From Candidatus Woesearchaeota archaeon (GTDB taxonomy: Archaea > Nanobdellota > Nanobdellia > Woesearchaeales > JAZDKJ01): a DNA stretch of 64,000 nucleotides. The notes under the pieces are model-generated. The model was not told the DNA's origin, did no database searches, and was given only the letters and a program-made list of their open reading frames with translations. Location: the NCBI GenBank assembly GCA_043803105.1, contig JAZDKJ010000006.1, forward strand, positions 64,001 to 128,000, in the 5' to 3' direction. The translations under genes and the position numbers were made by a program. Positions within the stretch are counted from its first letter, which is position 1, and each line of letters begins with the position of its first letter. Of the stretch, positions 13,970-44,600 are shown in pieces.

Positions 13970-13998
13970 TCGAAGACCAAAAATTATTGAAGAATTAA

Positions 13999-14643: not shown

Positions 14644-14687
14644 CTTTGTTTCACCGCTTTTTAGCTAGAACATGCAGTCGACGATAT

Positions 14688-15161
14688 TTAAACCTTTCGT
14701 TCAGCTAGCATCTCCTCAATTATCTTTTCTACCTCTCTTCTCGTCACAAAATTCACCGGCGCCCACATGTTGATGTATTTCTGCAGCACATTGACCTCTT
14801 CTTTTTTTGCGCAGAGCCTTATCTCCTTGATTATTAACAGCAAATTGTTTTGCATATCATCCAGGATGTGCCTAAGTTCGTTGATATCCATGTTTACCGT
14901 CTTTATCTCTGTGATGTTTTTCTTGTTGTAGCTTAGCATGTTCTGGTCTGTTACCTGCATCTTTCTTCGCAGGTTTGTGTACTGCTCTTCGAGTATCCTG
15001 AGCCTTCGGGTTAGTAAGGTTACCTCGCTTAGTTTCTCATTTTTGTCTTCTGCGAACATGGTTCGCTTCTTGTCGTCAGGGATAAGGCTATCCATGACAA
15101 GTCCCTTCTCTTGGCAGTTTATTAAATTTATGTTCCCATACTGTAGTGGTACATGCACCAT
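14688..15161 (-). CDS. Hypothetical coiled-coil protein (start uncertain)
   Basis: RRLRILEEQYTNLRRK...LQKYINMWAPVNFVTRREV; minus-strand TTTTATAA ~24 nt upstream of 15161. Confidence 0.7.
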   Translation of the reverse strand: MVHVPLQYGNINLINCQEKGLVMDSLIPDDKKRTMFAEDKNEKLSEVTLLTRRLRILEEQYTNLRRKMQVTDQNMLSYNKKNITEIKTVNMDINELRHILDDMQNNLLLIIKEIRLCAKKEEVNVLQKYINMWAPVNFVTRREVEKIIEEMLAERKV

Positions 15162-15233
15162 CGAAAGCTTTATTAAGCACTATATTATAAAATGTACAAA
15201 ATAAATAAAAAAATATAAAATATATTTTATAAT

Positions 15234-15383
15234 ATGAAGCGTCCTATTAGCGCAACGATTGATGAGGGTCTGTTAGATTGGGTTGATTCCCAATTGGCTG
15301 ACACTAAACGGTATAGGAACAAGTCTCATCTAATTGAGATTGCGCTTGAGCTGTTAAAGTCTGAGGTGCAAAAAAAGAGGTAG
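15234..15383 (+). CDS. Ribbon-helix-helix (CopG/Arc) regulator, 49 aa, below the ORF-track cutoff
   Basis: Manual translation MKRPISATIDEGLLDWVDSQLADTKRYRNKSHLIEIALELLKSEVQKKR; stop is 3 nt before the ATPase start. Confidence 0.8.
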   Translation: MKRPISATIDEGLLDWVDSQLADTKRYRNKSHLIEIALELLKSEVQKKR

Positions 15384-15386
15384 ATC

Positions 15387-17669: not shown

Positions 17670-17672
17670 AAA

Positions 17673-25736: not shown

Positions 25737-26141
25737 ATGGTAGTTTTGTTTGATAAGTTTAATCTTCCTGAGGAAGTTCTGGATGTAATTTTTGCTACAA
25801 AGCAGCAGAAAATCGTAGCTACTGAGCTTATAAAATTCATAGTCAAGAACAAGTGTTCTATCGGTAAGGTTGACATGTCACTTTTTGCCACCCAGCTTCA
25901 TGATGGTACATTTGAGACAACAATAGAGGAGGAGCCCTACAAGGGAAAAAAAGTGAGGATCTCCTACAACCGTCGCCAATTCTATGACAGGATCCTTACC
26001 CCAATGAAAAGCATGGGAATGATCGACTATGACTTGTACAAGAAAACATACAGCATCTCTGAGCATTTCAATGCTGAGATGATAAGGATTGGCATTATGT
26101 GGGTCGCTTACCTAAACAAGTTAAAAGCTCAAACACAATAA
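25737..26141 (+). CDS. Conserved hypothetical protein, paralog of 1128..1535
   Basis: End-to-end similarity; AACATTTATATA at 25693-25704. Confidence 0.78.
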   Translation: MVVLFDKFNLPEEVLDVIFATKQQKIVATELIKFIVKNKCSIGKVDMSLFATQLHDGTFETTIEEEPYKGKKVRISYNRRQFYDRILTPMKSMGMIDYDLYKKTYSISEHFNAEMIRIGIMWVAYLNKLKAQTQ

Positions 26142-26456: not shown

Positions 26457-26672
26457 GTGACTGACAAGCTGGTGAGCTTTCGCGTACCTTTAGCCTTAGT
26501 TCTTGAGTCAAGGAGCCGCGTTGAACAAGAGCATTTCAAGGACCTTTCTGAACTCATCCGGGCTGCTATCAGGAGAAAGTTTGCTGAGTCGCAAAAGCCT
26601 GAGCTTGCCGAACTTACAAAACAGGACATCATCAGGGAACTTCAAACCCTGATTGAGAGGCTGAAAAAATGA
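26457..26672 (+). CDS. Ribbon-helix-helix regulator
   Basis: LVSFRVP...FKDLSELIRAAIRR; ATGA overlap with the next gene. Confidence 0.75.
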   Translation: MTDKLVSFRVPLALVLESRSRVEQEHFKDLSELIRAAIRRKFAESQKPELAELTKQDIIRELQTLIERLKK

Positions 26673-29407
26673 AAAAGCCTCTCTTGACTCTTGTTTGCCT
26701 CCTTGCCACGCTCGCGGCCTTGCAGATTTCGCGTGCCGACGAAACAAATTCTTCTATGTACAATCTCACTTTCAACAAGACCATTTGCCTGCTCTCCAAT
26801 GGAACCAATTTCACTTCTTACGACTGCGATAACGACAGCTTCCCCTATTGGCTCGACTGCAATGATTCCAACCAAAATATTAATCCAAATGCCACAGAGC
26901 TATGCAACCGCCTTGATGACAACTGTAATGGCCTGGTTGACGAAGGCTTTGACCAGGACATTGACGGATTTTATCCTGCCTCTTGCGGGTACGGCACATT
27001 TGACTGCAATGATTCCAACCCATTTGTAAACCCCAACTCAACAGAGGTCTTTGGTAATGGATTGGACGATGATTGCAATGCCTCAACCCCTGACAAGCCC
27101 TATCTTAGGGTTCTCATCACAAAGCCTAGCTATCTCCTGGGTGAGACAGGTGCATTAATAGTCAACGCTACCCAAGGGTCATATGTTTACCTCACAATAA
27201 CCACGCCATCGAGCTCGCACAATTCCATCTTGTCCTTGCACGGGCCCTATCCTGTGGTCCAGATGCTTCCGTACATTAGGAAGGTTGGAACATACATTGT
27301 TGACGCGAGTCTTGATTACATGAATTATGCAAATAGCACCAGAATAACATTCTCTGTTGAGAATACAATCGCCGCCCAGATCATTGGTAGCTCATCAGTC
27401 CCAAGGAACGGGCAGCTCCAATTAAGTGCCACAGCTGCCGGCGGCATAGGTACACTAAGATACTACTGGGATTTTGGGGATTCTACTTTCTCCGTAGGAA
27501 GCTCCCAGACTCACATTTATACGAGTGTTGGCAGGCGCACTATTTGGCTGTATGTAAATGACTCTGAACAAAACCAATGGAGGACATCAAAAGATATTGA
27601 CGTTTATGACAATTACCGCTTGACTGTTGCTGTGCGCAACTCCTCCTTTGGGGTGAAGAACGCTAAGGTGGAGCTAAATAGCGACCAAAAACTCACGAAT
27701 GATTCTGGCCTCGTGCAATTCACTTCTCTTCTGAGGGGTATTTACTATCTTAAGGTCTCGCGCTCAGGTTATGAGCCCTACTTAGAGACAATCAATCTCA
27801 CTGCGAATCTGTCAAGGATTGTGCAGCTCATAGCAACTGAAACTACCCTGCCAGTTGTAACCCTGGTGGCTCCTGCTGATGGTCAGGAGTTTGAACCTGG
27901 CAAGGTACAGTTGCGATTTCATGCCTCTGACAGCAGCAACATGGAATGTGTGCTCTACTTGAGCTTGGACAATTCTTGGTGGAGCAAGGAGGCTGTTTTC
28001 GAAAATGTGGTAAGCAACCAAGAGTACTCGTATGCATTGAACAACCCTCAGCAAACTACCTACTGGTGGAAAGTCCGCTGCCAGGATTCTGACTCCAATG
28101 CGCAGTTTAGTCAGGTGTTTAAGTTCATTGTGAGATCAAAGGAAGCACAGCAAGACGCGTCCCAAGACACGACAATACAACCTGTTGCCACTGATGATGA
28201 GAATGCCGACCTCCTCGCCCAGATTGATACTTACCGTGACTCTCTGGCAAAGCTTCCGTCCGTTGAAGCAGAGGCGGCTCAACTGCTTGGGCTGGACGCT
28301 CAACTGCTTGATGCCAAGAAGAATATCCAGAACTATGGTCGTGATATCTTTAATGTCAAGTTCCGCAAACTCACCGATGCCGAGAAGGCTAATCTTACTT
28401 ATGACCTAACACAGAGGCTGGAGTTTCAAAAAAAGAGCATAATCAAGAACCTGCAGGTGCTTAAGCACAACAACTTTGTCAAGTATAGTTCCAGCGCAGA
28501 CCTCAAGCTCTTGGTCTCGCTGCTCACCAATTCGTCTGTCACAGCCTCTTCCCTCACACCGCTTCAACACCTGCTAACAGTCTCTACAAAGGTCTTTGTG
28601 GTGAGGCTTGAGTTCTTGGGCTTGGAGCCCAAGATCCTTACACTAGTGCAAAAATCAGTGCAAATCTCAAACGCTTCTCAACTGGGTTCTGTTTTGGAGG
28701 TTGTGCCTAAAGAGTTTGCTAGGTCAGCATCTGAATTGAAGGTTCTTGGCGTTTACAAGGTTTTGCAGGATGATCCAGTCCTTGAGTTTGTTCCTAACGA
28801 TTCTCTTGTAATCCAATACAGTGTGGATAAGGAGGTTGATCCGGCGATTGTTGAGTCATCAATCACCGCTGGTCTCCCCACAACTGTTGCGTTGTCAAAT
28901 AAGGTTACCGGATTTGCGGTTGGAAATCTCTCAAAGGGTATAATGGATAATTCCCTTTATATCCTCATAATTGCAGTCCTTGTCAGTGTCATGCTACTTC
29001 TTGCATACAAATGGGAGGACCTTAGCCAAAGTTTTGCTAAAGTCAATACCCCTATGCCTCGAGAGTTTATTGTTTTATCACAGAAGTTGATAGAGCGCCT
29101 GAATAATGACAATCTAACAAGCGCGAGAACTATCTATAGGGAGCTGCAGCAGGAATACGCAAAGTCACCTAAGGAGGTTAAGGCTGCTGTCTCGTTTGAA
29201 GTTCTTCATCTCTTTCATCGGTTGCAGTTCTCTGAGTTGCAGCACACCGCAGCCCGCATAAAAACCTATTGCGAGGATGGCGATCTTGAGCAGGCAAAGC
29301 ACCACTACCATTCAATTAATCAAATGTATTCCAAACTGCCACGGCACCTAAAGGAGCAGGCCTTTGAGACCTGCATCGGGGCTCGCAAGAGGATAGATGA
29401 GAACTAG
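26669..29407 (+). CDS. Type I membrane surface protein: MopE-like Cys/Asp metal-binding repeats, PKD, Ig-like domains, TM, cytoplasmic helical tail
   Basis: Signal peptide; DCNDSN-NINPNATELCNRLDDNCNGLVDE repeats; YYWDFGD (PKD); TM LYILIIAVLVSVMLLLAY. Confidence 0.8.
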   Translation: MKKPLLTLVCLLATLAALQISRADETNSSMYNLTFNKTICLLSNGTNFTSYDCDNDSFPYWLDCNDSNQNINPNATELCNRLDDNCNGLVDEGFDQDIDGFYPASCGYGTFDCNDSNPFVNPNSTEVFGNGLDDDCNASTPDKPYLRVLITKPSYLLGETGALIVNATQGSYVYLTITTPSSSHNSILSLHGPYPVVQMLPYIRKVGTYIVDASLDYMNYANSTRITFSVENTIAAQIIGSSSVPRNGQLQLSATAAGGIGTLRYYWDFGDSTFSVGSSQTHIYTSVGRRTIWLYVNDSEQNQWRTSKDIDVYDNYRLTVAVRNSSFGVKNAKVELNSDQKLTNDSGLVQFTSLLRGIYYLKVSRSGYEPYLETINLTANLSRIVQLIATETTLPVVTLVAPADGQEFEPGKVQLRFHASDSSNMECVLYLSLDNSWWSKEAVFENVVSNQEYSYALNNPQQTTYWWKVRCQDSDSNAQFSQVFKFIVRSKEAQQDASQDTTIQPVATDDENADLLAQIDTYRDSLAKLPSVEAEAAQLLGLDAQLLDAKKNIQNYGRDIFNVKFRKLTDAEKANLTYDLTQRLEFQKKSIIKNLQVLKHNNFVKYSSSADLKLLVSLLTNSSVTASSLTPLQHLLTVSTKVFVVRLEFLGLEPKILTLVQKSVQISNASQLGSVLEVVPKEFARSASELKVLGVYKVLQDDPVLEFVPNDSLVIQYSVDKEVDPAIVESSITAGLPTTVALSNKVTGFAVGNLSKGIMDNSLYILIIAVLVSVMLLLAYKWEDLSQSFAKVNTPMPREFIVLSQKLIERLNNDNLTSARTIYRELQQEYAKSPKEVKAAVSFEVLHLFHRLQFSELQHTAARIKTYCEDGDLEQAKHHYHSINQMYSKLPRHLKEQAFETCIGARKRIDEN

Positions 29408-32400
29408 AAAAAAGAATAGCATTGGAATAAAGTACTTTCTCTCCATAACTGTGCTCTTAATACTTGCAGTCTCTGTCATGGTGTTGGTAAATCGTTTCAT
29501 AGGTTATGTTTACGTTGAAACCGAGCCTGGGACTATCACCCAAATCAACCTTGCTATAAAGGATCCAACAGTTTACTGGCATGGTTTTTATGGTATTATT
29601 ATGATGGTTCCCCAGTTTGACGCCCAGCAGTCTGCTTTAGCACAGAACGGCAAGATTGACCTCATACATTTGTTATTCCCTTGCCTGCAACCCAATATAC
29701 CGCATGAACTCTATGCCTCCTTGACCCAATACCCTCAATGGGAAACTGTTGTTGCCGCCTTGCCAGCAGATGTGGACGCTTTCCTTGGCCTAAATTCTTC
29801 CGCATATTCCTCAGCAAATAATACATTCACCACAAACATCACCGTAAGATTAGGCCCGACAGTCATTTCCAATGTTCCCGGTACATACACAAAACAGCAG
29901 GTTGCCAACCTTTCATCTTTCAATCTGGGAATCTTGAAAGATGGGCTGGGCAATCTGATTTATGTCACGCAGATTGCTGATTACGTTGAAGGTTTTAGCG
30001 GCCTTACCACAAATTATCAAATAATGGTTGCCACCGGAAACAATACAAACCGGAGGTACTACTTTTTTACAGATCCTTATGATGAGTGCCCCAAGGGCAT
30101 CACCTTCGGCCTTTTTGGCCAGCGCGCCAGGTTGTATGGTTGGGTGAAAGACAATGCCACAGGAGCAAGACTGGATACAGTTGCAGTGATGCTCGCTGAC
30201 AACATGACCTTGACAGATTCTCATGGATTCTATAACTTCAGTGTTCTCTCTGGCATCCAGATAATCGCAGCTGCCAAGAATGGTTACAACAATTTCATCG
30301 ATCTCCTCAACATCTCCCCAGATTCTGTCAGGGAGTATAACATTTCCATGTCCCAGACTGCCAAATATACCTATACTTCTACTGGTGTTGGTCCTGGAAT
30401 CGGGCCTGGCCAGTCTGTTGGTCCTGGCGTAGGTCCGGGCGTGTCGTTTAAGCCTGACGTAGGGCCCTATACTGAAGAGCCAAAGAGGTTCGAAGGGCTT
30501 GACATCTGGATTTCCACAACCAACATAGACAAGATTCTTCGCACAGGCACTTTTGCAGAGGATCCTATTTTTATCTTCAATTTCGGGGTTGATCCATTGC
30601 TTATTGAGTTTTCTGTGAGGGGTAACGTGAGTCCTTCCTTAAAGCTGGACCGAACAACGCTTAGGATTCAGCCTAACTCAATGGCTAATTTGACTGCCAC
30701 TTTCTTCGGAAACCAGCCGCTTGGAAACTATTTCGGAAATATTGACCTTGGTGGTGATATCAATTTCTCAATACCACTCAAGGTGAAGATTGTCAGTGAG
30801 GAAATGCTGCCTGTCGAAGCCCTTATTGTTACGGTCACCCCGACAAAGACCCGGCTTACTCCGGATTCTGACCTGAGATACAAGGTGGACTTGAACAATC
30901 TGTTGACTGATCAGGAGTATGAAGTTTACCTCAAGTATTTCATCAAGGACTTGAACAATTCAAAGATTTTTAGTACCGATGAGGACAAGGTTCATTTGCA
31001 GACCAGTTATTCCCTTTTAAAAAGCTATCATATTCCACGGAATGCTTCGCTTGGTGAATACATTATACAGGTTGATGCCCACTACCTTGAGCTTGTTACT
31101 ACAGGAACAGCCATCTTTGATGTTGTCGCGCCTTTCTTCCAGTACATGGTTTTCGGTTTGATTCCTTTGTGGCAGCTTTTTCTTATGATTGTAGCTCTGC
31201 TGTTCATAATATTCGCAGTCTGGTACATCCGTCGTATGATAAGCCAAAAGAAGCGCTTCCACGTCAAGGTGGAGTTTGACCTTCTTCCAAGTCAAGGCCC
31301 GCGGTCAATTTTTGTGGGCAAGGTCGCAGAGACCAACAAGAAGACCTATCTTGACATGGACAATTTGACTGTCCATACAATAGTTGCGGGTTCCACCGGT
31401 GGTGGTAAGACAATCTCAGCCCAGGTTATAGTAGAGGAATGCTTGATGAAGAACGTGGCTGTTGTGGTTTTTGATCCGACTGCCCAGTGGTCTGGCTATT
31501 TGCGTAAGTGCACTGACAAGAAGATGATGACCTTCTATCCAAAGTTCAACCTGAAAAAGTCTGATGCAAGAGCATTTAAGGGTAACATCCGTTATGTCGA
31601 GAACCCCTATGAGATAATTGACTTGAAAAAGTACATGATTCCCGGCAACATACAGGTTTTCACCATGAACAAGCTTGACCCAAAGGACATAGACATTTTT
31701 GTGGCAAACACTGTTCGCGAGGTGTTCCACTTAAATCTTCCTGAAGCGCGCGAGCTCAAACTCCTGCTTGTATACGATGAAGTTCATAGGCTTTTGCCGA
31801 AGTTCGGTGGCTCGGGTGAAGGGTTTATCCAGATAGAAAGGGCATGCAGAGAGTTCAGAAAATGGGGTGTGGGCGTAATGCTCATCTCACAGGTACTTGC
31901 TGACTTCGTTGGCCAGATTAAGGCAAACATCAACACAGAAATCCAGATGAAAACTAGAGATGAAGGCGACCTGAACAGGATAGAGACCAAATTCGGCAAG
32001 GGTTTGATTCAATCCCTTGTTAAGAGCCCGATTGGTTCAGGTATGGTGCAGAACGCTGCCTACAACCGTGGTAATCCCTTCTTCATTGAATTTAGGCCTA
32101 TTCTCCACAGCGTCGAAAGGCTCTCTGACGATGAGCTTGCCCGCTACAACAAGTACAACAACCAGATTGATGATGTGGAGTACCAGATTGACCAGATTGA
32201 GGAGCATGAGATTGATGTCTTTGATATGAGGCTTGAATTAAAGCTTGCAAAGGATAAGTTGCAGAGCGGTAACTTCAATATGGTAGATATTTATCTTGAG
32301 GGCCTTGGCCCTAGGCTGAAGTCAAATTTCGAGAAGTTGGGTGTAACCCCAAAGAAGCGCACCATCAAGATGGTCGACAAGGCAAGCCTTGAGTCTGAGC

Positions 32401-33278
32401 TTAAGGCTGCCAAGGACGCTCGTGCTGAATACGAAAAAGCAAATAAGAAGGACCAGCCTGTTGAGGCAAAGCCTCAAGGACCCTTGAAGTTTGGCGATGA
32501 TGTGCCTCCTGACAAGATCCTCAGGCTGAAGAACGATATGCTTGTTGTCAACCTAAAGGGTTTGATTGACGAGATTGCTGCCTTGAAGCCAGCGTTGTAC
32601 GCACAGCAAGTAAATGAGAAGAAGAATGATTTTGCTGATTGGATCGAAAACGTGATTGGCAACAAGAGGCTCGCCAAAAAGGTTAGGGAAACCTTGGGCC
32701 AGCAGCAGCTTGTTGCGCTGCTTGATGATGCTTACAAGAAAGAGAAGAGTGGCGTTGTAGAGCCTGAGGAAAAGGAGGAGCCCCAGAAAAAGGAAGAACC
32801 TCAAGAGAAAAAGGCAGAGCCTGCAGCGCAAGAGAAAAAGGAGGAGGTCAAGATGCCAGCACAAGCAGTTCTACCTGAGTCAATAAAGGCTCAGATTTCC
32901 AAGACTCAATCGTTTATTGACAAGCACGATGTTGATAATGCAACCATTGCGTACAACGAGCTTACTGCGATGTACAGGCAGTTAAACAAAGAGCAGCAGG
33001 CTTTAGCCTCTCAGATGTGCATGGATCTTAGGAACAACCTACAGGAAATCATACGCTTGAGCAGTATGTTCAAGACAGGTTCACAGCAGATTGCTGAAAT
33101 AAATGACCTGCTTGAAAAGGCAGATGCCTTATTGAAATCAGGCCAGCATGCACAGGCTTTCAACACCTATCAGCAGATAATTGCAGAGTATCAGGCATTG
33201 CCTCCTGACCAAAAGCCTCTCGTATTTCAGAAATGTGTTGACCTACATTCGAAACTGTCTAAAAGGGTGGTAGCATGA
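29397..33278 (+). CDS. Extracellular domains + TM fused to a cytoplasmic HerA/FtsK/VirB4-superfamily ATPase with DUF5752-like domain and helical tail
   Basis: N-terminal hydrophobic segment; GPG repeats; TM ~31145-31230; Walker A AGSTGGGKT, VFDPTAQW, Walker B LVYDEVHR, REFRKWGVGVMLISQ; KKNDFADWIENV. Confidence 0.85.
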   Translation: MRTRKKNSIGIKYFLSITVLLILAVSVMVLVNRFIGYVYVETEPGTITQINLAIKDPTVYWHGFYGIIMMVPQFDAQQSALAQNGKIDLIHLLFPCLQPNIPHELYASLTQYPQWETVVAALPADVDAFLGLNSSAYSSANNTFTTNITVRLGPTVISNVPGTYTKQQVANLSSFNLGILKDGLGNLIYVTQIADYVEGFSGLTTNYQIMVATGNNTNRRYYFFTDPYDECPKGITFGLFGQRARLYGWVKDNATGARLDTVAVMLADNMTLTDSHGFYNFSVLSGIQIIAAAKNGYNNFIDLLNISPDSVREYNISMSQTAKYTYTSTGVGPGIGPGQSVGPGVGPGVSFKPDVGPYTEEPKRFEGLDIWISTTNIDKILRTGTFAEDPIFIFNFGVDPLLIEFSVRGNVSPSLKLDRTTLRIQPNSMANLTATFFGNQPLGNYFGNIDLGGDINFSIPLKVKIVSEEMLPVEALIVTVTPTKTRLTPDSDLRYKVDLNNLLTDQEYEVYLKYFIKDLNNSKIFSTDEDKVHLQTSYSLLKSYHIPRNASLGEYIIQVDAHYLELVTTGTAIFDVVAPFFQYMVFGLIPLWQLFLMIVALLFIIFAVWYIRRMISQKKRFHVKVEFDLLPSQGPRSIFVGKVAETNKKTYLDMDNLTVHTIVAGSTGGGKTISAQVIVEECLMKNVAVVVFDPTAQWSGYLRKCTDKKMMTFYPKFNLKKSDARAFKGNIRYVENPYEIIDLKKYMIPGNIQVFTMNKLDPKDIDIFVANTVREVFHLNLPEARELKLLLVYDEVHRLLPKFGGSGEGFIQIERACREFRKWGVGVMLISQVLADFVGQIKANINTEIQMKTRDEGDLNRIETKFGKGLIQSLVKSPIGSGMVQNAAYNRGNPFFIEFRPILHSVERLSDDELARYNKYNNQIDDVEYQIDQIEEHEIDVFDMRLELKLAKDKLQSGNFNMVDIYLEGLGPRLKSNFEKLGVTPKKRTIKMVDKASLESELKAAKDARAEYEKANKKDQPVEAKPQGPLKFGDDVPPDKILRLKNDMLVVNLKGLIDEIAALKPALYAQQVNEKKNDFADWIENVIGNKRLAKKVRETLGQQQLVALLDDAYKKEKSGVVEPEEKEEPQKKEEPQEKKAEPAAQEKKEEVKMPAQAVLPESIKAQISKTQSFIDKHDVDNATIAYNELTAMYRQLNKEQQALASQMCMDLRNNLQEIIRLSSMFKTGSQQIAEINDLLEKADALLKSGQHAQAFNTYQQIIAEYQALPPDQKPLVFQKCVDLHSKLSKRVVA

Positions 33279-33865
33279 TTGAAGCTGCACAAGCAGACGA
33301 GGTTGCAATCTTAAGGGAGCATTTCCGCTTGTTAAGGGAGCGCTTGAGCCAGAACAGGAAGCTCGGTATGGACACAAAGATAGCCGACCTGAAGCTGATG
33401 TCAGTTGCGCCCAAGATTCAGATGGCTGCTATTACCAGCGAGAGGCGTGACCTTGAGGTTGTGCAGAGGCTTCTTTCTGAGATTGAATCTGAGATGAAGC
33501 AGTTAAGGAAAGAGCAGCGATTTGAGGACGTCCTCTCAAAGGTTGCTGTAGAAGAGCGGGAGCGCCTGGATAAGTCAGAATCCCCTGTTGAGTACTTGAA
33601 ATTGAGCCAGGATGAGATTATCGACAAAACCAATAAATTAATAAATCAGGCAATTGAGTTCTTGGACAAGGCAGAGTTCGAAAAGGTTTATCCAATCTAT
33701 GTGGAAATACAAGGCATCTACAAATATCTGCCAAAAGATTTGAAGCAGGAGGTCTTCACGCAGGCAATCCTCATTTATCGTCGCCTGAGGACAAGTGATA
33801 TCTTCAAGAAAAAGTCACGCCTTCAGCTGTTGGTCAAGAAGGTTAAGTGGAGGTTTGGATTGTGA
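33275..33865 (+). CDS. Hypothetical helical/coiled-coil protein
   Basis: ATGA overlap with the upstream ATPase; contains a Y..I...Y..LP...K module. Confidence 0.75.
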   Translation: MIEAAQADEVAILREHFRLLRERLSQNRKLGMDTKIADLKLMSVAPKIQMAAITSERRDLEVVQRLLSEIESEMKQLRKEQRFEDVLSKVAVEERERLDKSESPVEYLKLSQDEIIDKTNKLINQAIEFLDKAEFEKVYPIYVEIQGIYKYLPKDLKQEVFTQAILIYRRLRTSDIFKKKSRLQLLVKKVKWRFGL

Positions 33866-34911
33866 AGCTCAAGTTTTGGAAGAAGACCGAGGCTGCAGAG
33901 CAGCCAGAGCAGCCAGAGGAGGAAGAACAGGCTGAATCTCAGCCTGATAGCCGGGCTTCCTCAGACCTTCTGGCGGAGTTTAACCGTTTAAGGGTTAAGG
34001 TTGAATCCTTGGATGAGATAAGGAAAGCAAACGCAGAGCGCTTTGCCCACACGAGCGAGCAGATTGGCGAATTGAGAGGCATGATCCTTGACACCAATCG
34101 CACAGTTTCCGGCATCGAGGTCAAGATTACCAAGACAAATGACTTGGTTGAGGCTGTCCAGCCCGACAAGCTGATGGTTGAGGTAAGGAAGACCGATGGC
34201 AAGATCGAGGCTGTGCGGGCAAACATTGAGAGCAATGAGGCATTGTTGAAGACCATGGTTGCTGAACTCAAGGATTTAAGGAACAAGATTTCATTTTTCA
34301 GGGGCCTTGAGCAGATTGTCAAATTGAACGAAGACATAAAGAAAGAGCTGACAGAAATCCAGAAGATAAAGGCCGTGGTTGAGCGTCACGCTGACAAGTC
34401 GGAAACCCTATTCTCAGAGATGCAGAATCGCTTTGCCGACCTTGACAAGTTTTCAGGCCAATTGAAAGACCTAGGTGATAACATCAAGCAGCTTAATGAT
34501 TCAGCAGACAAGCTCAAGGCTCAAACTGCGAAGAAGGCAGAAAAACAGGAGCTCGAACGGCTTGTTAAGAAGTTCAACGAGTTTGAGCTTCATGTTGGAA
34601 ATGTCATTGACCTAATGTCAAAGAAGGCCAAGGAGTTAAATGACCAATTTAAGTCTGACACTGAGAAGTTTCAACAGTTGTTCGATACAGAGCTGAAGCG
34701 CGGCAAGAAGATCATTGACCTTATTGGTGAGCTCTCAAGGGAAAATCCAAATCTTGAGAAAAATCTGCTTGCCGTAGAGGAGATGGAAAAGTCGCAGGAA
34801 GAACAGAAAAAGGCAGAGCAGGTTGTCGCCGATCTGCCTGCAAAAAAGGCATGGTTCACCTGGCCAAAGAAGAAGAAAGAAACAGAAAAGCCAGCGCCCA
34901 AACCTGCTTAA
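33862..34911 (+). CDS. Long coiled-coil protein
   Basis: GTG start overlapping the upstream TGA, GGAGG at 33849-33853; heptad-rich; KFWKK and WFTWPKKKK ends. Confidence 0.75.
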   Translation: MKLKFWKKTEAAEQPEQPEEEEQAESQPDSRASSDLLAEFNRLRVKVESLDEIRKANAERFAHTSEQIGELRGMILDTNRTVSGIEVKITKTNDLVEAVQPDKLMVEVRKTDGKIEAVRANIESNEALLKTMVAELKDLRNKISFFRGLEQIVKLNEDIKKELTEIQKIKAVVERHADKSETLFSEMQNRFADLDKFSGQLKDLGDNIKQLNDSADKLKAQTAKKAEKQELERLVKKFNEFELHVGNVIDLMSKKAKELNDQFKSDTEKFQQLFDTELKRGKKIIDLIGELSRENPNLEKNLLAVEEMEKSQEEQKKAEQVVADLPAKKAWFTWPKKKKETEKPAPKPA

Positions 34912-35066: not shown

Positions 35067-35627
35067 GTGGCTGCTAGCAAGCTCGAACAGAGGATAGTTG
35101 GGCTGTTTGTTGACGTCAAATCAGCCTTTAGTATTCTTCAGATTGCAAAGATGATGAACACATCCTATCCTCATGTATATAACGCTGTTCAAGGTTTGAT
35201 CGAGCAGGGCATACTCTCAAAGCTCGTTGTTGGCAATGTTCATCTTTGCCAATTGAACCTTGATAATGATCTTACCATAAGCCTGCTGTCGCTTCTCGCC
35301 TTACAAAAAAGAGAGCCGCTAATTCGCAAGCACAAATCTGTTCACCAGTTCCTCGCAAGCCTAAAGCACTCAAATCTGAGGTTTTCCGTTGACTTCTCAT
35401 TCTTCCTCAAGGGTGAATACTATCTTGTGGTGCACGATGCACATGAATGCAAATGGATACAGCAGTCCTTCGGCACAGCAAAGTGCTTGGACTTGGCTAG
35501 CGGCCTTGATCTCTTGGCATTGCATCACACAGAAGCTACTGTCCTACTGGGCTTCGAGCGCTATTATCAGGCCCTTTTCAGCATTTTCGACAGGCTTCAG
35601 GGACCGCTGGAGTTCAAACATGAATAA
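35067..35627 (+). CDS. Winged-helix transcription regulator (possible degenerate nucleotidyltransferase C-domain)
   Basis: FSILQIAKMMNTSYPHVYNAVQGLIEQGILS...VGNVHLCQLN. Confidence 0.7.
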   Translation: MAASKLEQRIVGLFVDVKSAFSILQIAKMMNTSYPHVYNAVQGLIEQGILSKLVVGNVHLCQLNLDNDLTISLLSLLALQKREPLIRKHKSVHQFLASLKHSNLRFSVDFSFFLKGEYYLVVHDAHECKWIQQSFGTAKCLDLASGLDLLALHHTEATVLLGFERYYQALFSIFDRLQGPLEFKHE

Positions 35628-38600
35628 GGCAATTGTCTTCATTGGTTTGTTTGTAATCCTTGCCGCTCTCTCCTATAGCGAAGAATCCATTTTTACAGAC
35701 AAGTTCGAATATCAAGCTGGAGAAACCGTGAACATCTTTATAGGTGCAAACCTAAGCCCAGCGTTAGAGCTGGACATAATCTTTTCAGGCCAGCTCTTTA
35801 CTTTCAGTAGTACCAACAATTCTCGCTACGCATTTAAGCCCAGGACTGCCGGCGAATATTTTGTTACGCTCGTGAACCTGAGTTCCAACAGGTCTGTTGC
35901 AGTGATCTCATTTAAATTACTTGGTCAATCGCTAAGATGGGTTCGATGCACAGACCATGCGTCCTATAATATTGCTGACCGCGTCTTAATTGCTTTTAAT
36001 TCCTCAATAATAGATCTCAACCTTTCAGTTGGTGATAGAACTTATCAGTTTGCAGGAGACCTGGAAAAGCCTGTAATGTTTCGCCCTTTGTTTCCTGGGG
36101 CCTATTTGGTCCAGGCAACTGATCACACTGGTGAAAGTCTATTCTGCAATTTTTCAGTCTCTGGAAATCAGTCTGTGGTAGGGCCGCAAATTCTGAACAA
36201 TACACATTTTGTTTCCCCACCACGCTTCAAATTGCACGACTCAAGAAAGCATGAGCTTCTTGTACTCAACTATTCGATAAATTCTTCAGAGGCTGTTGTC
36301 TTGCCGCTAAACTCCTTTGCAAAGAAGATTGTTTTTCACGGGCTTCATAACAGCACGAACTTGTCCCTTGGTTTGGATGAGGTGTCTGGTTCCGTGCCCT
36401 CTCCATCAGGTGTTCGTTGGAAGCGCGTTTTTGCCATCGATCCTTCAAATCTAAATTTTACCTCCGCTCTCGTCACGCTCAGGGCACAAGGCAAGGCCCT
36501 ATACAAATGCAGAGAGTGGGACTTCTCTAGACAACAATGCCTAGGTTCATGGGAAAAGGTTAAGGACATAACCCCGGGCATTGACTACAACATTACTCTT
36601 GGTCCAGAAGATCCAGGCTATGCTGAGGCAGAAATCAATATCATAAACGTGCAGAGCTATCCTCAGGTTGGAGGCACATGGACTGTAATGTTCACCACTG
36701 TCGGTTCTGCTGACCTGGTTATTACGCCCATAAATGGAACCACATGGAATGGTCCTGGCCAAGACCTGATGTTTATGGAAATACGGTGTGGCGAATCTCC
36801 GCTTTCTTTTAGCTGGATAAACAACTCAGTTGTTGTCTCAAACTTTTCCTGCAATGATACAGCTTATGAGGTGAGTAAGGTTCTGACTTCAGGCAAGCAC
36901 CTGCTAGAATTTTCTTTTGGTGCCAGCAAGGCTTATGCTAGGAACGCTGCAGGAGATGGTTACCTGATCATGCTCTGGGATAAGGCAACCATTCCAACTA
37001 ACTGGACCTGCATATCCTGTACTTCCACCAGCCCGTTTTATCAGAGGTTGCCACGTGGCAACAGTACCTATGGTGCACCAAGCGGTTCTGCAACTCACAC
37101 CCATGCAGTCTCATTATTGTCTATAAGTTATGCCTCTTCCACTGTTTTTGGTGGCGAGACCAATACGGATGCCACTTCAACAACCCATACTCATGCAGTT
37201 GCATCCCAGACCTCCAGCTCTGCTTCGAGCCTGCCGAGATATCGCAACCTAAAGTTTATTATGTACAACTATAAGGTTCCTAAGACTCTGCCTGCAGGCA
37301 TTATCGGCCTTTTCAACTCTTCTCCACCTGCATTTTGGACTTTGTATTCCAAAGAGGATGGCTACTTTATTATGGGTGAGAACACTACCTCGACAGGAGG
37401 GGCAAACAGCCACAACCACACTGTCTCGTCATTCAGTCTTGACGCGACCGGCGACCTTGCAGGTAGGGTCTGGACAAACCAAGCGGGAGATGATGCTCGC
37501 GCAAATCACCAGCACACTGTAAGTCCTCCAACTTCTCAGAGTGCAAGCACTATGCCACCTTATATTCATGTTATCTTAGCCAATCTTTCAAAGGATTCTC
37601 CTTTGCCAATTGGTTTGATTGGTATGTTTAATGACACCCCATCAGCCTATTGGAGTCTGCTTTCAAGCTTAGGAGGAAAGTTTTCCGGCAAGTTTATTGT
37701 GGGAAATTCCACAGCGTACGGAAAAACCAGTTCTTCGCAATCGCATGCTCATGCAAATTACTTTTTTGCTTCTGGAGCAGCCACAACCAATAGGTTAAGC
37801 AGGTCAAGCGGCACTGTTGTTGCCAGTGATTCTCATACCCACAATGTGACCTTGAGTTTCACTAATGTTACAAATCTGCCGCCATACATCAATGTGATAT
37901 TTTCTTGGTCAAGGGCAGGTTGGGCCTATCCTAACGTGACGCAAATCACACCCGCTCCCGATTATGTGGATTCTGCCACCTCGCCAACAATACAGGTGAA
38001 TTTTACCTGCCGGATTACTGATGACTATGATGCCAAGAACCTTTCCTTGTATCTCACCAACAACAATAACCGGAGCATTAAGCTTAATGAAACATGTCTT
38101 ATCCCTTCTGTTAACGGTAGCTGCTCCTGGATAAAGGGCCTTCGCACAGGTAACTACACCTGGAACTGCGAGGGTTTTGATGAGACTGGTCTTGGCTCCT
38201 TCACCAAGAACAGGACGGTAAGGTTGCTCTGGGCAAACTCAAAGCCGCCCATAATCACAATTACAAGGCCTAAGAACAACACCTTTTCCAAGAATCCGGT
38301 AATCCTGAACCTCACCACTGACGAGGATGCTGTTTGCAGGTACTCAACAACAAGCACGTTTAGCTTTGCCGCAGGCACGCTCTTCTCAAAGACTGGAACA
38401 ACCATTCACGGCACAAACCTTGGAACCCTCTCAAACTCAACAACATATGTCTATTACGTGAAATGTAATGACACAGTCGGAAATGTGAATAATGTCTCAA
38501 ACCAGGCTGCTGTGCAGTTCACTGTGGACAACAAGCCGCCGAGGATTACCCTGAACATTCCTGTAAACGGTTATAACACTACTTCGGAGATAGTCAATTT

Positions 38601-41600
38601 TACCTGGACAACTTATGACGCGCTTGATACGAACATCACCTGCAACCTCACTCTCGACTCTGCTGTCATTTCTGCCTCAAAATACTCTCCAAACAACTCT
38701 AAGACTTCTATCGTCTCCTCTGTGACAGAGAAGATCCATCAATGGAATGTCTCTTGCTGGGATTCTGCAGGTAACCGAAATACAAGCAGCACAAGCATCT
38801 TCACAAGGCGCATTATCAAGGCAGTCCTTAGGGTGCAGACCAGGAACTACACTTACAAGCAGAACAAGGCAGTGAACCTTACCACACGGAAAGTCTATGA
38901 CTCAGGGGACTTGGAGCCATCCACTGTTTTGGTAACTTCATACAACAGGACAGGCACAGTTGAATACAATTTCACAAGTTATTCTGCCAAGGGCCACAGC
39001 GCTTTTTACAGCGATTCCGCAGGCAGCCAGCCTCCTGCTTCCGGTCCTTCAATAAACGGCGAGGCTGTGTTCACAGCAGCAGCTTACAACGCTTTGAATA
39101 AGTCCGATGATTCGCGCGCAGATTTTGGCAACGTGAACGATTTCAGGAGCCATAGGTTTCAATTTCGCATAAATGAAACCTCAGCCATAATGACAAAACT
39201 TGGCTTCTATTACGAGGGCTATGATGCAGGTGGCGATGTCTATCCGCTACAGTTCTTCCTCTGGGATTTTTCACAGCAGAGCTGGGTCTACCTTGGAGAG
39301 CATTTATCCTATACAACAGACGGTATAATCACCGCAACAAAGAGTTCCAGTCTTGCAAGCTATGTAAATTCGAGCCATTACCTGGACATCGCTGTCGTGA
39401 CAGGCAATCCTGGAAGCGCAAAGACTCTCTACACTGATTATGTTTACGTGAACGTTACCAAGCATGACGAGCTGGACGGTGACGCCTCTTCCGGTTTCAC
39501 CAACTACTCAAATGTTATTGCGGGTAACTTTACCAAGTTGCTTGATGCTTATGTGAGGCTCCAGGTTACTGCCTATAACGCATCTGGCTCAAAGAACGCC
39601 TCAAACACATACCCTGATATTGAGATACAGCTTTACGATGGTTCAAAGTTTGGATACTCATACCGCTGCAACCTCACCGGCAGCCTTGGTCTAAGCTCAA
39701 AGCAGCCAACAAACTGCTCAGTGCACGTTGTCAACTCGACTATTGTTACAGCTTGGACAAACTCTTCAAACAGGAGGGTCAGGGTCAGGGCTGTCAACCT
39801 TGACAGTACCACCAAGGCCAGCGACTTGATTAGCTGGAATGGTTTTTTTGTCAGGCTCGAATCTCCATCTGAGCTTCAGAACTACGGAGACCTGAACCTG
39901 ACCGGAAGGCTGATCATTCAAGTCAAGAATTCTACCGGCAGGGTGCTTGGCGTGCTTTATAACCAGTCTATTAAGGTGAGATACAACTCCAGCCTGAATT
40001 TTTCCGGTCTTCCCATATCTTGGAACACTGATTCTTATCCCTTGGGCATGTATAGGGTTTATGCAGGATTGTTCAACGCCTCCAATGGCATGATCCGAAA
40101 CTATGATGGCACCTTTGTCAACGACACCTCACCCTTTGTGATAGATTACCTGAGAATAACTGCGCAGTCCCCAACAAACAGGTCAGTGGTTGATGCAACT
40201 AGCTTTTGGGCAAACTTGACCTTAAGCTACCTGAGCTATAAGAGCGGCGGTTGGTGTGCCTATTCCATGGATAACAAGCCCAATGTTTCCATGCGCAACA
40301 ACTCGGCAACACATTTTTTTAATCGAACCTCAAATATCTCTGTCGGCCAGCACAGCATTCGCTTCTTCTGTAACGATACCCAGAAGGATATCTCCTCATC
40401 ACTGAAGATATATTTCAATGGCACTGACCAGACAGGCCCCCAGGTTCTCCTCACGTCGCCAGCAAATGAAGCCGAGGAGACTGACGGAAACGTTAGCTTC
40501 TTCTACAATGTAACAGACCTTGTGTCAGGGATTAAGAATTGCACCCTGGAATTCAATTTCGCCCCTGAAGCGACAAAGACCAGCATTCAGGAAGCCAAGA
40601 ATCTTAATTTTTCGATGGCAGAGATTCCAAACGGCGGTCCATATTACTGGCGCGTGTACTGCTATGACAATTCTCCCGCCAGAAACATCGGTTACTCATC
40701 ATATAGGAGTTTCATCATTGGAACTGATACAGATAAGCCAGTTGTCACCCTGAGCGACCCTGTGGACGGCTACAACACCTCCAATAATGACTTACCCCTC
40801 ATATACAGGGTGTATGACCCCACCACAGGAATCAAGAACTGCACCCTTGTGCTCAACAACAAGAAGAACGAAACAAGGACAAACATAATCCAGCAGGGCT
40901 TCCCATACAAATACAACAACTTTACTCTCCAGAACCTTGGTGACGGAAATTACACCTGGAGTGTGAACTGCACTGATACATCTTCTGCCCATAACCAGGG
41001 CAATTCCTCAACATGGCGTTTTACCGTGAACCGTGACACAGACTTTCCAATTGTTTACCTGGTCTTGCCAGCGGATAATTATACATCCAGTTCAGGCGCC
41101 ATGGACTTTTATTTTAATGTAACAGACTTTTCATCAGGAATTGCAAACTGCAGCCTGCTGATTAATGGGACAGTCAACTCAACTATCGACAATGTTACCG
41201 AAGGAATCCTGCAGCATTTGTATGTTCCGGGCTTTAAGGACGGAAGCTACGTTTGGCAGGTGAACTGCACTGACGATTCTTATGATACCAACACTAATAC
41301 CTCTGCGCACCTTCACTTCAATGTTGAGCGTCTCATGAATATGCGGCTCATTATGACAGCTTTCATGGCTGAGTACCAAAAAGGTAGCCAATTGAACGAG
41401 ACTGTGAACATTACTGCCCTTCTCTACGACCTTGTGGGTTACCCCCTAAGCGGCATGGTGGATTCTGATTTCATCAAGGCAAATACATCTGTCAAGTGGT
41501 GGAATTCTTCCTGGCAGCGCAGAAAGCCCATATACCTGAACAACTCTGTGCCATACAACAAGCCGAATTATCTCGTTGAAGTGAACATCACAGGCTTATC

Positions 41601-44600
41601 GAGCTTTATCCGTAACTGCACAAAGGAGATAAGGATTGTTGACATACATAATATAGAGGTGCCAAGCCAGGTTATTTCAGGCAATGACCTGACCTGGTGC
41701 TCAGTTGCTTTCAAGGCAAATGTTTCTGCCAGCGCAGTAAATGAGAACAGGTATTTTGCCTACCATAATTACACCTTGGCTACAAAGCCAAGCTACAAGA
41801 CCATTGCCCTGAAGGGTTGGCGAACCTACAACTTTTCCAATCGTGCCGTATTTGGCCACCATGCTTACAACAGCAACAATCCTTCGGATGGTGGCCCGCA
41901 GCCACCGAATATTGGGCCTGCCTTGAACAATGAAGTCGAATTTACCCCTCAGCAGTATTCAGACGTGCAGTTCTCTGACAATTCAAGGGCTACCTCAGGT
42001 ACTGTAAACACTGAGCGCAGCCATCGTTTTGTCTTCAACATCTCAGCCAATGCCTCAGACGCAGATTCCATAACCTTTGTCTGGGAGGGTTATACCACAG
42101 GCTCTGGCCCTAGCGTTGTTCTTTACCTTTGGAATTATTCCAGCTCTGCCTGGGTTCAATTTGGCACTCATAGCATTACCTCTGATAGGAACCTTTCCAA
42201 CTCTCTTAACGGCACTTCCCTTTCTTCTTTCGTGCATAACAATCTTTTGCATATTGCTGCAGTCTCTGATGACCCCTCAAATGCTCAGACCTTGTACACT
42301 GATTTTGTGCAGGCAAAAGTGCTAACAAATACAGTCACGAACAACTCCAAGGTCGGTTCAACTGAAGTATTTGTCGCAAGGCTTGCGAACAGCACAGGTT
42401 CAGATGGCATCCTCAAGATGAACCTCAGCACTGATTTCATGGAACTAGGATTCTTCAGCGTTGTCGGCTTGGCATCAACCTCAAGCTATTTCAACACCAC
42501 AAACCACACGCATTACACGGTTGCGATTGACCACACCAGCCCCCAGGTGTTGCTGAAAAAGCCGATAGACCTTAATATTAGCTACGTAAGCGACATCTCT
42601 CTTTTCTTCAATGTCACAGACCTGCTTTCAGGGATAAAGAACTGCTCTCTTATACTGAACAACAAGGTTAACCTGACCAACACCACAGTCTCTGAAGGCT
42701 CAACAATTGGATTCTCGCTCTATAATCTTGCAAACGGTGATTATAATTGGACTGTCAATTGCACTGATGATTCATCGCTGCAGAACCGAGGTACTGCTGC
42801 AAAGCGCAAGTTCACAATCGCAAAGGATACGGTTGCTCCAATTGCTAGTCTCAAGAATCCAAGCCCTGGTTGGACTGATGCAAACGGCAACATTACGCTT
42901 TTCTTCAATGTTACAGACAACCTGATGCCGACTGCTGATTGTACGCTGTATTTCAACAGCTCAAGAAACGAGACCAAGCAGGGCCTGCAGACCGGTGCGC
43001 ACACGCATAACTTCACCCTGACCGGTTTGAATAACGGCTTTTATTCATGGTTTGTTAACTGTTCCGATACATCATCCCAGCGAAATTATGCCTCTTCCCA
43101 AACCTGGAACTTCTCGGTGACTATTGACTTTGCCACTCCACTCATTAAACTCAGGTTTCCCCACAATGCGACCCAGCTGACAAACGAGAACATAACCTTT
43201 GCTTACAATGTGACTGACGCCCTCTTTAACGTCTCCAACTGCTCGCTTTACCTTAATGGAGAGCTGGACCAGACCAATATTACCATTAAGGAGCTTGCAA
43301 ATAACACCTTCCGTTACTTTTACATGGCTGGCCCATACAACTGGTCTGTCTATTGCATTGACAGTTCAGAGAATGCCAATGCTGTGATGTCTGACATTTG
43401 GGAGTTTCTTGTAGCGCCAGACAACGATGGCCCTCTGGTGAATCCTGTTTTCCCACCTGACAGTATTGAGCTTAGCGAGGGGAACATAACATTCTATTAC
43501 AATGTCTCTGATTTTGCCTCAGATGTTGAGAACTGCAGCCTGTTCATAAATCAAACAGGGATGGCATTCTCTTCAAACATTGCTGAGGGCATAAAGCAGA
43601 ACCTCAGCGTTGTCCTGCAGAACGGCAGCTATTATTGGATTGTTAACTGCACTGACAATTCGGAGAATCACAATACTGGCGCGTCGGCCGCAAGAAAGCT
43701 CACCATCGGCCTTGACCGCACCGGCCCTACTGTAACCTTGTTAAGCCCTGTTCCTCCTTACAATGACACTGATGGCAACGTGCTCTTGCAGTATAGCGTT
43801 ATCGACTATGCCTCAGGGGTAAGGAATTGCAGTCTTTTCATCAACGACAAGGTGAATGCCACCAACTCAACAATAGCTGAATCTGAGAATCTCCATTTCA
43901 GGCTAAGCACGCTCTCAAACGGCTTCTATACATGGCATATGAACTGCACCGACACATCCTCTCTCGCGAACACCGGAAAATCGCTGAAGTGGAATTTTAC
44001 CGTGACCCTGGACAACGAAGGCCCAGCCGTCAACCTTGTCTTGCCTGATGATTATGCTACAGACACTGACGGCAATAGGATTTTCTACTACTCTGTGGAT
44101 GATGTTATATCAGGCATAGTCAATTGCAGTTTAGTCATCAACAATAAACTAAACCTAACCAACAGTTCCCGCATAATCGAAAATGCTTTGTCGAACTTCA
44201 CCATCACTGGCCTCGGTACTGGCCAGTACAATTGGTCTGTGAACTGTACAGACAATTCTGACAATCATAATCGCAAAGGTGCACAGACTCGCCATCTGAC
44301 AGTTGTGGTTGATGCGACAGCACCGGTTGTTGAACTCATTTCGCCTTCAGACCTCACTGCTGACAATGACGGCAATCGCACCTTCTACTTCAATGTGACT
44401 GACTCTTTGACCAATGTCTCTTCCTGCACGCTGCATGTTGGTCCGTATACTTATATCAACACCTCACTGCTCCAAGGGCTAACCCAATCATTCAAGCTCT
44501 CCGCAATGTCTAACGGTGTCTATCGCTGGAACATTTCTTGTGTTGACAGCTCAGAAAACCAAAATAACGGGATTTCAGGGTCGCGTACCTTGACTGTCAG

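Follow-up and report, generated by a model that had tools for sequence, protein, structure and literature searches.

A very probable compact member of the SPEARE-type surface proteins, with a HerA/VirB4-branch ATPase, in a conserved gene module of a Candidatus Woesearchaeota archaeon

The window considered here is a stretch of 64,000 nucleotides (C6:64001-128000) from the genome of a Candidatus Woesearchaeota archaeon, which comprises 1.56 Mb in 13 contigs and is estimated to be 96.5% complete; positions are those of the window unless a contig is named. Its main subject is the plus-strand gene at 29397..33278, which starts with ATG and stays open for 1293 codons (1293 aa), so that the reading frame with an ectodomain, a membrane part and a motor called in the initial annotation is borne out. 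The product, designated below as the motor protein, is a membrane protein with a cytoplasmic ATPase of the HerA/VirB4 branch, and very probably it is a compact member of the SPEARE-type family of DPANN surface proteins. Its gene forms the core of a conserved, tightly packed module that includes four partners. The open reading frame (ORF) shares 11 nt with the ORF before it, which ends at 29407, and 4 nt with the ORF behind it, which starts at 33275, and the ORF after the latter overlaps too; because successive ORFs overlap, the genes at 26669-34911 are packed like an operon. The nearest protein relatives bear the NCBI labels Candidatus Woesearchaeota, Pacearchaeota or Nanoarchaeota, and one copy of the motor was found in the own genome.

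Kyte-Doolittle hydropathy and the structure models reveal two hydrophobic segments only (residues ~13-33 and ~581-618) in place of the single transmembrane (TM) segment supposed initially. The first of them, TM1 or a signal anchor (29433..29495), falls within a model helix of residues 6-34 and is preceded by MRTRKKNSIGIK, the first 12 residues having a net charge of +5. The second, TM2 (residues ~586-618; 31152..31250), is defined by hydropathy (581-616), model helices and homologs and is followed by the basic cluster RRMISQKKRFHVK; the outer flank of each membrane helix has a net charge of -2. Most of the N-x-S/T sequons (15 of 17) are placed within residues 35-580 (binomial P 1.2e-4), and all of 90 long homologs have more sequons per length in the outer part (median 1.96 vs 0.30 per 100 aa). 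In addition, C96 and C231 of the outer head are invariant in the 82 sequences of alignment A2. According to the charges and sequons, together with the two invariant cysteines, the loop lies outside and the N-terminus and the ATPase lie inside. Thus, the two halves of the chain are on opposite sides of the membrane, as had been expected, and the motor protein is a hairpin (N-in, C-in), or a type-I protein if TM1 is cleaved. The extracellular character of the large loop was recognized correctly, and its length is to be corrected from ~580 to about 545 aa.

The RecA-like ATPase core (residues 619-910; 31251..32126, plus strand) was delineated by Pfam matches, invariant motifs and fold comparison. 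It contains Walker A GSTGGGKT (residues 665-672; 31389-31412), Walker B LLLVYDEVH (residues 789-797; 31761-31787), the arginine-finger motif CREFRKWG (residues 817-824; 31845-31868), and the sensor ISQ (residues 830-832; within 31878-31895), all on the plus strand. The key residues of Walker A and B, R-x-x-R-K-W-G, and S-Q are invariant in the 94 sequences of alignment A1, in agreement with the intact motor proposed earlier, and owing to these invariant motifs the enzyme looks active. The median identity of the core to the homologs is 69%.

In Pfam the motor passes for DUF87 (44.4 bits, cut-off 23.2) and HerA_C (25.3 bits, cut-off 22); the matches to DEAD, AAA_10 (18.3 vs 27.5 bits), and ResIII stay under the cut-offs, and no row for TrwB_AAD_bind or T4SS-DNA_transf was obtained at E<=0.01. 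The NCBIfam models score far below their cut-offs: HerA models NF040937 and NF040819 give 28.8 bits vs 800 and 21.6 vs 970, coupling-protein models TIGR03743 (TraD) and TIGR03754 give 27.4 vs 366 and 17.4 vs 647, and the best row, CedD (NF053655), gives 32.3 bits vs 600 and covers only residues 639-704 in the Walker A region. A sequence search of the PDB returned only antiphage HerA chains (2e-6 and weaker) over the stretch from Walker B to the sensor.

The model of the C-terminal half (residues 575-1293) has a predicted local distance difference test score (pLDDT) of 89.5. In VIA-align its closest fold matches are archaeal HerA 4d2i_A (Z 25.4, 253 aligned residues, root-mean-square deviation (rmsd) 2.9) and HerA-NurA 9x1m (Z 24.7), the two archaeal HerA chains aligning over 253-256 residues with rmsd 2.8-2.9 and about 19% identity; these are followed by DndH-C 7es4 (Z 23.8), VirB4 4ag6 (Z 23.6), TrwB 1e9s (Z 19.2), FtsK 2iut (Z 17.6), TcpA 6o1y (Z 16.6), and EssC 4lya (Z 16.5). 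Superposition on HerA, VirB4, TrwB, and FtsK aligned 217-256 residues. The core is therefore a member of the HerA/VirB4 branch of the FtsK-HerA superfamily, which upholds the type of motor first named for it; profile scores and structural Z values stand in for a tree here, and HerA and VirB4 are left unseparated, with the top rows within 2 Z. The two other DUF87 proteins of the own genome match the motor merely at motif level (E about 5e-5).

The extracellular part consists of four folded domains and a hinge, and in the model of the N-terminal half (residues 1-640, pLDDT 84.8) it is arranged as a stalk with a head. The beta-rich head D1 (residues 45-232; 29529..30092), modelled with pLDDT mostly >90, bears the invariant C96 and C231. 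It has no Pfam match, an Atlas look-up of residues 40-240 gave no usable match, and no fold match was listed by Foldseek or VIA-align for the 640-residue model, searches that barely tested D1. The second domain D2 (residues 244-322; 30126..30362) is a transthyretin-like or carboxypeptidase-regulatory beta-sandwich (VIA-align with 5aq0_B: Z 14.0, rmsd 1.3, 79 aligned), and homologs carry the corresponding domains PF13620/PF13715. Next is the Gly-Pro hinge (residues 323-367; 30363..30497) with the core repeat GVGPGIGPGQSVGPGVGPG (residues 330-348; nt 30384-30440). This GPG-repeat hinge, already pointed out in the initial annotation, is real and conserved, a 45-residue stretch between folded domains with pLDDT <50 (residues 324-366); it is present in 82 of 82 aligned long forms with a length of 31-61 aa, a median G+P fraction of 0.36, and mostly x-G-P-G units, and at the DNA level it is merely a 1.9-copy repeat of 12 nt. 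The membrane-proximal stalk (30498..31133) is formed by Ig-like D3 (residues 368-468, PapD/MSP-like) and D4 (residues 475-579), which match Ig-like sandwiches with VIA-align Z of about 11-13.5 and are retained in short forms of ~780 aa. The median identity of the outer domains to homologs is 31-36%.

Behind the ATPase core the chain continues with a conserved helical domain (residues 911-1005; 32127..32411) of three to four long helices, modelled with high pLDDT, which has many invariant residues in alignment A1 and a median identity of 55%. After a disordered linker follows a small helical DUF5752-like module (residues 1053-1118; 32553..32750) with the KNDFADW motif at 32622-32642. Its Pfam match is below threshold (17.8 bits vs cut-off 23, E 0.0022, 26 residues), and homolog P0008 passes at the aligned place with 36.7 bits; since the motor protein is sub-threshold but this homolog passes, "DUF5752-like", the wording chosen initially, is right, and assignment to the family proper falls short here. 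An acidic disordered stretch (residues 1126-1154) separates the module from a TPR-like helical tail (residues 1161-1292; 32877..33272), which was identified from model helices and by regular expression, with two copies of a hairpin motif. The acidic linker and the two TPR-like hairpins are further parts beyond those noticed at first. The tail is variable (median identity 10%): many homologs have Pfam TPR families at its position, and elsewhere the motor tail bears classical Pfam TPR repeats or a second DUF5752-like module in place of the hairpins. Elsewhere in the genome, DUF5752-like modules are present in four ORFs, of which two lie on contig C8; the carriers include C8:86475-87277 (minus strand), where the genome search read through two TGA and one TAA codons in the C8 stretch, C6:28501-28812 (minus strand), which passes the cut-off at 30 bits, and C6:159604-160365 (plus strand). 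No literature on DUF5752 was found.

The motor family is large. A word-based homolog search returned 881 proteins at E<=1e-3 among 3497 candidates, and when all 50%-identity representatives were searched exhaustively, 1198 matched at E<=1e-3, of which 519 did so at <=1e-10 and 364 at <=1e-30. The motor always lies toward the C-terminal end, and the outer part between the membrane segments measures from 115 to 5527 aa. Three forms can be distinguished: the long form of ~1300 aa, the short form of ~780 aa, which consists of D3-D4, TM2, and motor only since its alignment begins just past the hinge, and giants that reach 6253 aa among the representatives and 9416 aa as open frames in genomes. Short and long forms are adjacent in several genomes, for example G215, G024, G045, G077, and G070. 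Among 301 sampled genomes of the phylum 54 have the motor at E<=1e-20 (G000, 48 more from its order, and 5 from different orders within the class), patchily spread by family. No match to the motor was found in phage records, and in plasmid records there were only 10, all weak (23-29% identity), of which 9 came from haloarchaeal replicons.

In the motor protein TM2 and Walker A are ~45 residues apart, and the spacing between Walker A and the membrane segment ahead of it is 35-75 aa in 119 of 120, 131 of 142, and 79 of 85 homologs. Both halves of the protein are conserved in one frame (alignments A1 and A2), and the fusion is real and old. Because the last membrane segment is so close to Walker A, there is no room for a HAS-barrel or a VirB4 N-terminal domain, and in the model this interval holds a helix and a short linker only, with no HAS-barrel.

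A search for longer forms returned 186 proteins of 2,264-5,000 aa at E<=1e-3 among 1429 candidates, and the best 120 of the 186 have 46-63% identity over the motor, which ends these giants (2,308-4,973 aa). Giants labelled Nanohaloarchaea (61% motor identity) and Ca. Nanosalina (53% and 49%) are included, and many other listed giants are labelled Aenigmatarchaeota and Micrarchaeota. Two giant relatives, P0325 and P0334, are labelled Candidatus Hadarchaeales, an order outside DPANN; if their binning is right, the motor family is not confined to DPANN.

These giants link the motor protein to published proteins. Hamm 2019 (PMC6642349) describes SPEARE as very long nanohaloarchaeal proteins, mostly extracytoplasmic, with a TM segment toward the C-terminus, detected by proteomics, whose conserved intracellular part has relatives in Woesearchaeota; all the ectodomains are stated there to contain a laminin-G domain, and versions of 655 and 717 aa are listed too, so that size alone does not exclude membership. 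In Reva et al. 2023 (PMC10266531) the cytoplasmic part is re-annotated as a VirB4/TraG-like ATPase followed by a coiled coil, Hamm's protein is re-analysed along with giants of 8,880 and 9,409 aa, and the giants are proposed as type IV secretion "straws". The motor protein has the same layout, with the bulk of the chain extracytoplasmic, the TM segment toward the C-terminus, and a cytoplasmic C-terminal region. The first annotation of SPEARE as a type III restriction enzyme would be explained by weak ResIII/DEAD matches such as the motor gives. Since description, taxa, and identity fit, filing under SPEARE is likely to be correct. The initial premise that such pumps are normally soluble or only briefly anchored, and the design consequently new, does not hold, the design being already known from giant SPEARE. 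Among titles and abstracts joining DPANN with DUF87, or with transmembrane HerA, none was found on such a protein.

The neighbourhood of the motor gene (±10 kb) was compared in 20 other genomes at chosen loci, 14 with the long form and 6 with the short form, and in 5 of the 6 the short form adjoins a larger form. The upstream partner (26669..29407, plus strand) is a type-I surface protein of 912 aa, recognized by Pfam, hydropathy, and the hairpin motif, with a signal-peptide-like N-terminal segment, a MopE/PKD/Big_7 ectodomain, a TM segment at 757-783, and a 129-aa cytoplasmic tail with two hairpins; its homolog stands immediately upstream of the motor in 18 of the 20 loci. Downstream a soluble protein of 196 aa with one hairpin copy (33275..33865, plus strand; hydropathy and motif) has partial homologs in 7 of 20 loci, in four of which (L037, L038, L039, and L053) the match is in the C-terminal part of proteins of 224-338 aa; the L038 protein and same-position proteins in L036 and L054 start with a DUF5752-like module. 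The following protein of 354 aa (33847..34911, plus strand), with basic-aromatic ends and weak coiled-coil matches only, has a downstream homolog in 16 of 20 loci (E<=1e-48, 40-47% identity) plus one weak match, and its nearest Atlas clusters are unnamed Woesearchaeota/Nanobdellota proteins.

Further downstream (35389..52394, plus strand) are encoded a giant Ig-rich secreted protein of 4950 aa (35389-50241) and a protein of 718 aa (50238-52394), with Pfam matches to Big_13, Big_3_3, CARDB, and Big_7. Their ORFs overlap, a C-terminal region of ~490 aa is common to both with 35% identity, and neither protein has a membrane anchor at its end. Translation of the giant probably begins past the listed TTG, because a signal-peptide-like segment lies at residues 76-99. 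Giant Ig-rich relatives are found downstream of the motor in 11 of 20 loci, several of them cut by contig ends.

Three adjacent genes, for the motor protein, the upstream surface protein, and the 196-aa protein, have a helical hairpin motif in common, A-x3-Y-x2-[ILVM]-x3-Y-x2-L-[PN]-x3-[KQ] followed by a second helix, at positions 1182 and 1254, 819 and 876, and 138, respectively. The regular expression matches 4 of the 5562 ORFs of the genome, and a hidden Markov model (HMM) built from eight instances adds one protein beyond it. Beyond the three genes, the motif is carried in the cytoplasmic tail of two type-I surface proteins (723 and 836 aa) and in one soluble protein of 342 aa. In orthologs of the upstream protein the HMM places the hairpin at the C-terminal end; 13 of the 18 loci show it with a domain E of 1e-3 or lower, and 16 when the limit is relaxed to 0.03. 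These hairpin or TPR-like modules may serve as cytoplasmic adaptors tying surface proteins and soluble partners to the motor. A predicted-complex test of motor residues 618-1293 (A1) with residues 784-912 of the upstream tail (A3) gave a score of 0.00 (mark 0.32) and has no bearing either way. The two further hairpin-bearing type-I surface proteins are encoded outside the window at C6:236507-238678 (minus strand) and C6:175750-178260 (plus strand), and another type-I surface protein, of 1523 aa, within it (53500-58071, plus strand) has a helical tail without significant hairpin match; the cytoplasmic tails of these further surface proteins are about 100-210 aa long. The conserved module, the shared TPR-like tail motif, and the weak conservation of the membrane helices are what the present analysis adds; no description of the module or the tail motif was found in the literature searched, and the supplementary lists of Hamm 2019 may overlap with them and may include close relatives of the gene.

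Some other genes of the window deserve mention. On the plus strand, among the surface-protein genes, 52448-53209, 59456-59965, and 60401-61099 together encode two KaiC-like ATPases, matching Pfam "ATPase" at 5.6e-47 and 5e-53, and a DUF7504 protein, and behind them comes a V4R-domain protein (61102-61740); KaiC-like genes are near the motor in 4-5 of 20 loci. An ORF of 134 aa (25737-26141, plus strand) that Pfam does not match has counterparts with 62-69% identity in 4 of 20 loci, which is unusually conserved for the area. The ORF of 1931 aa at 6251-12046 (minus strand) has Pfam matches to SpvB, TcdB_toxin_midN, RHS-repeat, FG-GAP, and CBM96 and is similar to a Tc/RHS cocoon. On the plus strand three ORFs of ~190 aa without Pfam match (12243-13969) lie just 5' of a 760-aa T2SSE-type ATPase of the type IV pilus/archaellum kind (15387-17669), behind which is an ORF of 713 aa without Pfam match, and the whole of 12243-19814 may be a pilus locus. 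The pilus-like ATPase pair (15387-19814) and the HD/translin/EndoV and Tc-like genes were considered as parts of the module and were found in 0 of 20 loci within ±10 kb; since the pilus-type, HD, EndoV, and Tc-like genes have no counterpart near the motor elsewhere, they are left out of the system.

The explanation preferred for the whole, identity and mechanism together, is held tentatively; the identity by itself is very probable. The chain starts in the cytoplasm, crosses the membrane, and displays outside a glycosylated stalk of ~545 aa, in which the head and the transthyretin-like domain come first, then the elastin-like Gly-Pro hinge, and last the Ig-like pair; it then crosses back and, after a fixed linker of ~45 residues, continues into the catalytically intact ring ATPase, the conserved helical domain, and a variable adaptor tail. 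Six copies would form a ring under the membrane. The characterised membrane-anchored members of the superfamily, FtsK/SpoIIIE, type IV coupling proteins, CedB/CedD, and EssC, serve here as the analogy. By this analogy the ring would, where two cells touch, spend ATP on driving a polymer through the membrane, and the contact would be set up by the protein's own stalk and the partner adhesins. That a hexamer moves a polymer across the membrane is a possibility on which we place somewhat less trust than on the explanation as a whole; as the cargo a nucleic acid would be a doubtful first choice and a protein a still more doubtful second one. The weakly conserved membrane helices would act as anchors and force-transmitting links and not as a pore, in which case a translocation path, if any, would need another component or the membrane of the target cell.

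Several observations weigh against this explanation. TM1 and TM2 are the least conserved structured parts of the protein (median identity 20% and 32% vs 69% for the motor), they are wholly hydrophobic, and in alignment A2 they contain no conserved polar residue save W592, a pattern not to be expected of a conserved pore. By Pfam and hydropathy over the 20 loci the conserved module has neither a polytopic membrane protein nor a nuclease or a pilin. PF03135 (CagE_TrbE_VirB, the VirB4 N-terminal domain) has no match in the motor protein or in the 96.5%-complete genome, and PF04610 (TrbL/VirB6) has none in the same genome. The giant neighbours have a signal-peptide-like N-terminal hydrophobic segment of their own and so probably need no special exporter. 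The hexameric ring is a presumption from homology. With respect to identity, the motor protein has no Pfam row for laminin-G, and the SPEARE link is drawn through other nanohaloarchaeal giants and the descriptions in the papers, the type proteins NAR1_1133 and SG9 being compared by description only. The trans-envelope conduit suggested initially is somewhat weakened by the weak TM conservation and by the lack of a polytopic partner and of matches to TrbL/VirB6 and the VirB4 N-terminal domain. The same points argue against a self-sufficient conduit and a canonical type IV secretion system (T4SS) and weaken the published T4SS reading for the compact form.

Alternative explanations have to be weighed at the levels of the gene, the enzyme, and the mechanism. 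The joining of a surface protein and an ATPase by an assembly chimera or a mis-called ORF has a negligible probability, since 119 of 120 close homologs, drawn from many independent assemblies, repeat the order of parts; some homologs with this order sit on contigs >500 kb, and nothing in support of a chimera or a mis-call was found. The best Pfam and fold matches, being to HerA, would agree with an ordinary HerA DNA-repair helicase anchored to the membrane by chance; this is very unlikely in view of the ~45 aa between TM2 and Walker A that leave no place for a HAS-barrel, the NCBIfam HerA scores far below cut-off, the operon without a nuclease, and the presence in the genome of two other DUF87 proteins with a motif-level match only. 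The type IV secretion straw of Reva et al. 2023, proposed for the giant forms, would make the motor protein a VirB4/TraG equivalent at a channel injecting effectors into a host cell. It is in print (PMC10266531), VirB4 4ag6 is nearly as close in fold as HerA 4d2i, the hairpin topology is like that of type IV coupling proteins, some homologs match TrwB_AAD_bind, T4SS-DNA_transf, or FtsK_SpoIIIE, and the short and long forms side by side in several other genomes recall the paired ATPases of T4SS. Against this stand the genome without PF03135 and PF04610 matches, the AAA_10 and TraD/TraC scores under their cut-offs, the module without a pilin or polytopic protein, the single motor copy, and the plasmid and phage records with weak matches or none, so that for the compact protein the straw is judged quite improbable.

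An inside-out mechanical device is an alternative to be taken seriously, though it is unlikely. In such a device the ring ATPase would remodel or pull the cytoplasmic tails and the coiled-coil scaffold with no cargo across the membrane, and would alter clustering, extension, or grip of the adhesins via the membrane helices and the elastic hinge. It would suit a motor that is invariably joined in one chain to an adhesin-like ectodomain, whatever the size of the latter, membrane helices that are weakly conserved anchors, a conserved coiled-coil partner, a conserved G-P-G-rich hinge, and TPR-like tail motifs common to the motor, the co-transcribed surface protein, the soluble protein, and two further type-I surface proteins. 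However, characterised FtsK-HerA members are translocases of nucleic acids or proteins, to our knowledge no member works inside-out, and the 69% conservation of the core fits a universal substrate, such as DNA, better than lineage-specific tails that are ~10% identical.

Beyond the preferred explanation, the motor and its four neighbours might together be a self-contained cell-contact machine of Woesearchaeota-type archaea, distinct from T4SS and undescribed as a system, in which the TPR-like tail motif would be a docking code gathering surface adhesins onto one ring ATPase, and the ATPase would take up nucleic acid from the host, or export a polymer, at a contact that the elastic, Gly-Pro-hinged stalk keeps in place. 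This reading as a whole is improbable; if true, the 1293-aa form would be the SPEARE giant reduced to a minimum and open to experiment. SPEARE-type proteins are the main genomic candidates for the way in which DPANN archaea attach to other cells and obtain what they cannot make, and at 3,000-9,400 aa they are hard to study. The 1293-aa form keeps the whole conserved core (two Ig domains, membrane helix, motor, and helical domain), and together with its compact operon and the confident model of its cytoplasmic part it offers a practical entry point to the binding and cargo of the motor. The missing matches to T4SS partner genes in this genome also bear on the published proposal of a secretion straw.

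Among the known FtsK-HerA systems, archaeal HerA (S. solfataricus 4d2i; T. kodakarensis HerA-NurA 9x1m) has the same RecA-like core and the same set of motifs, and unlike it the motor protein has no HAS-barrel N-terminal domain and no NurA partner and is embedded in the membrane with an ectodomain. VirB4 and the coupling proteins (4ag6 of T. pseudethanolicus, TrwB 1e9s, and TcpA 6o1w) belong to the superfamily too and are ring ATPases associated with the membrane. In coupling proteins the motor is preceded by two N-terminal TM helices, and this layout is repeated here (TM1 ~13-33, TM2 ~586-618, then motor); in contrast to their short loop, a folded loop of ~545 aa is inserted between the helices, and their all-alpha domain has no Pfam match in the motor protein. 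CedB and CedD, described in PMC11868833 as TM-anchored HerA/VirB4-like archaeal ATPases in DNA transfer between attached cells, resemble the motor protein in anchor and ATPase type, CedD giving its best NCBIfam row. Unlike crenarchaeal DNA import by Ced, the motor module has no CedA-like polytopic partner in the 20 loci, and Ced proteins are not known to have a large ectodomain. From SPEARE the motor protein differs in its length of only 1293 aa, its fixed four-domain stalk and Gly-Pro hinge, and the lack of laminin-G, protease-like, or toxin-like regions in Pfam; its operon differs too, since a surface protein with a cytoplasmic tail precedes the motor gene, a coiled-coil protein follows it, and a second VirB4-like ATPase is absent downstream. 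With SPEARE it shares the export signal, the adhesin-like bulk, and one TM segment toward the C-terminus, and probably also the conserved cytoplasmic ATPase behind it with helical or coiled-coil tail parts.

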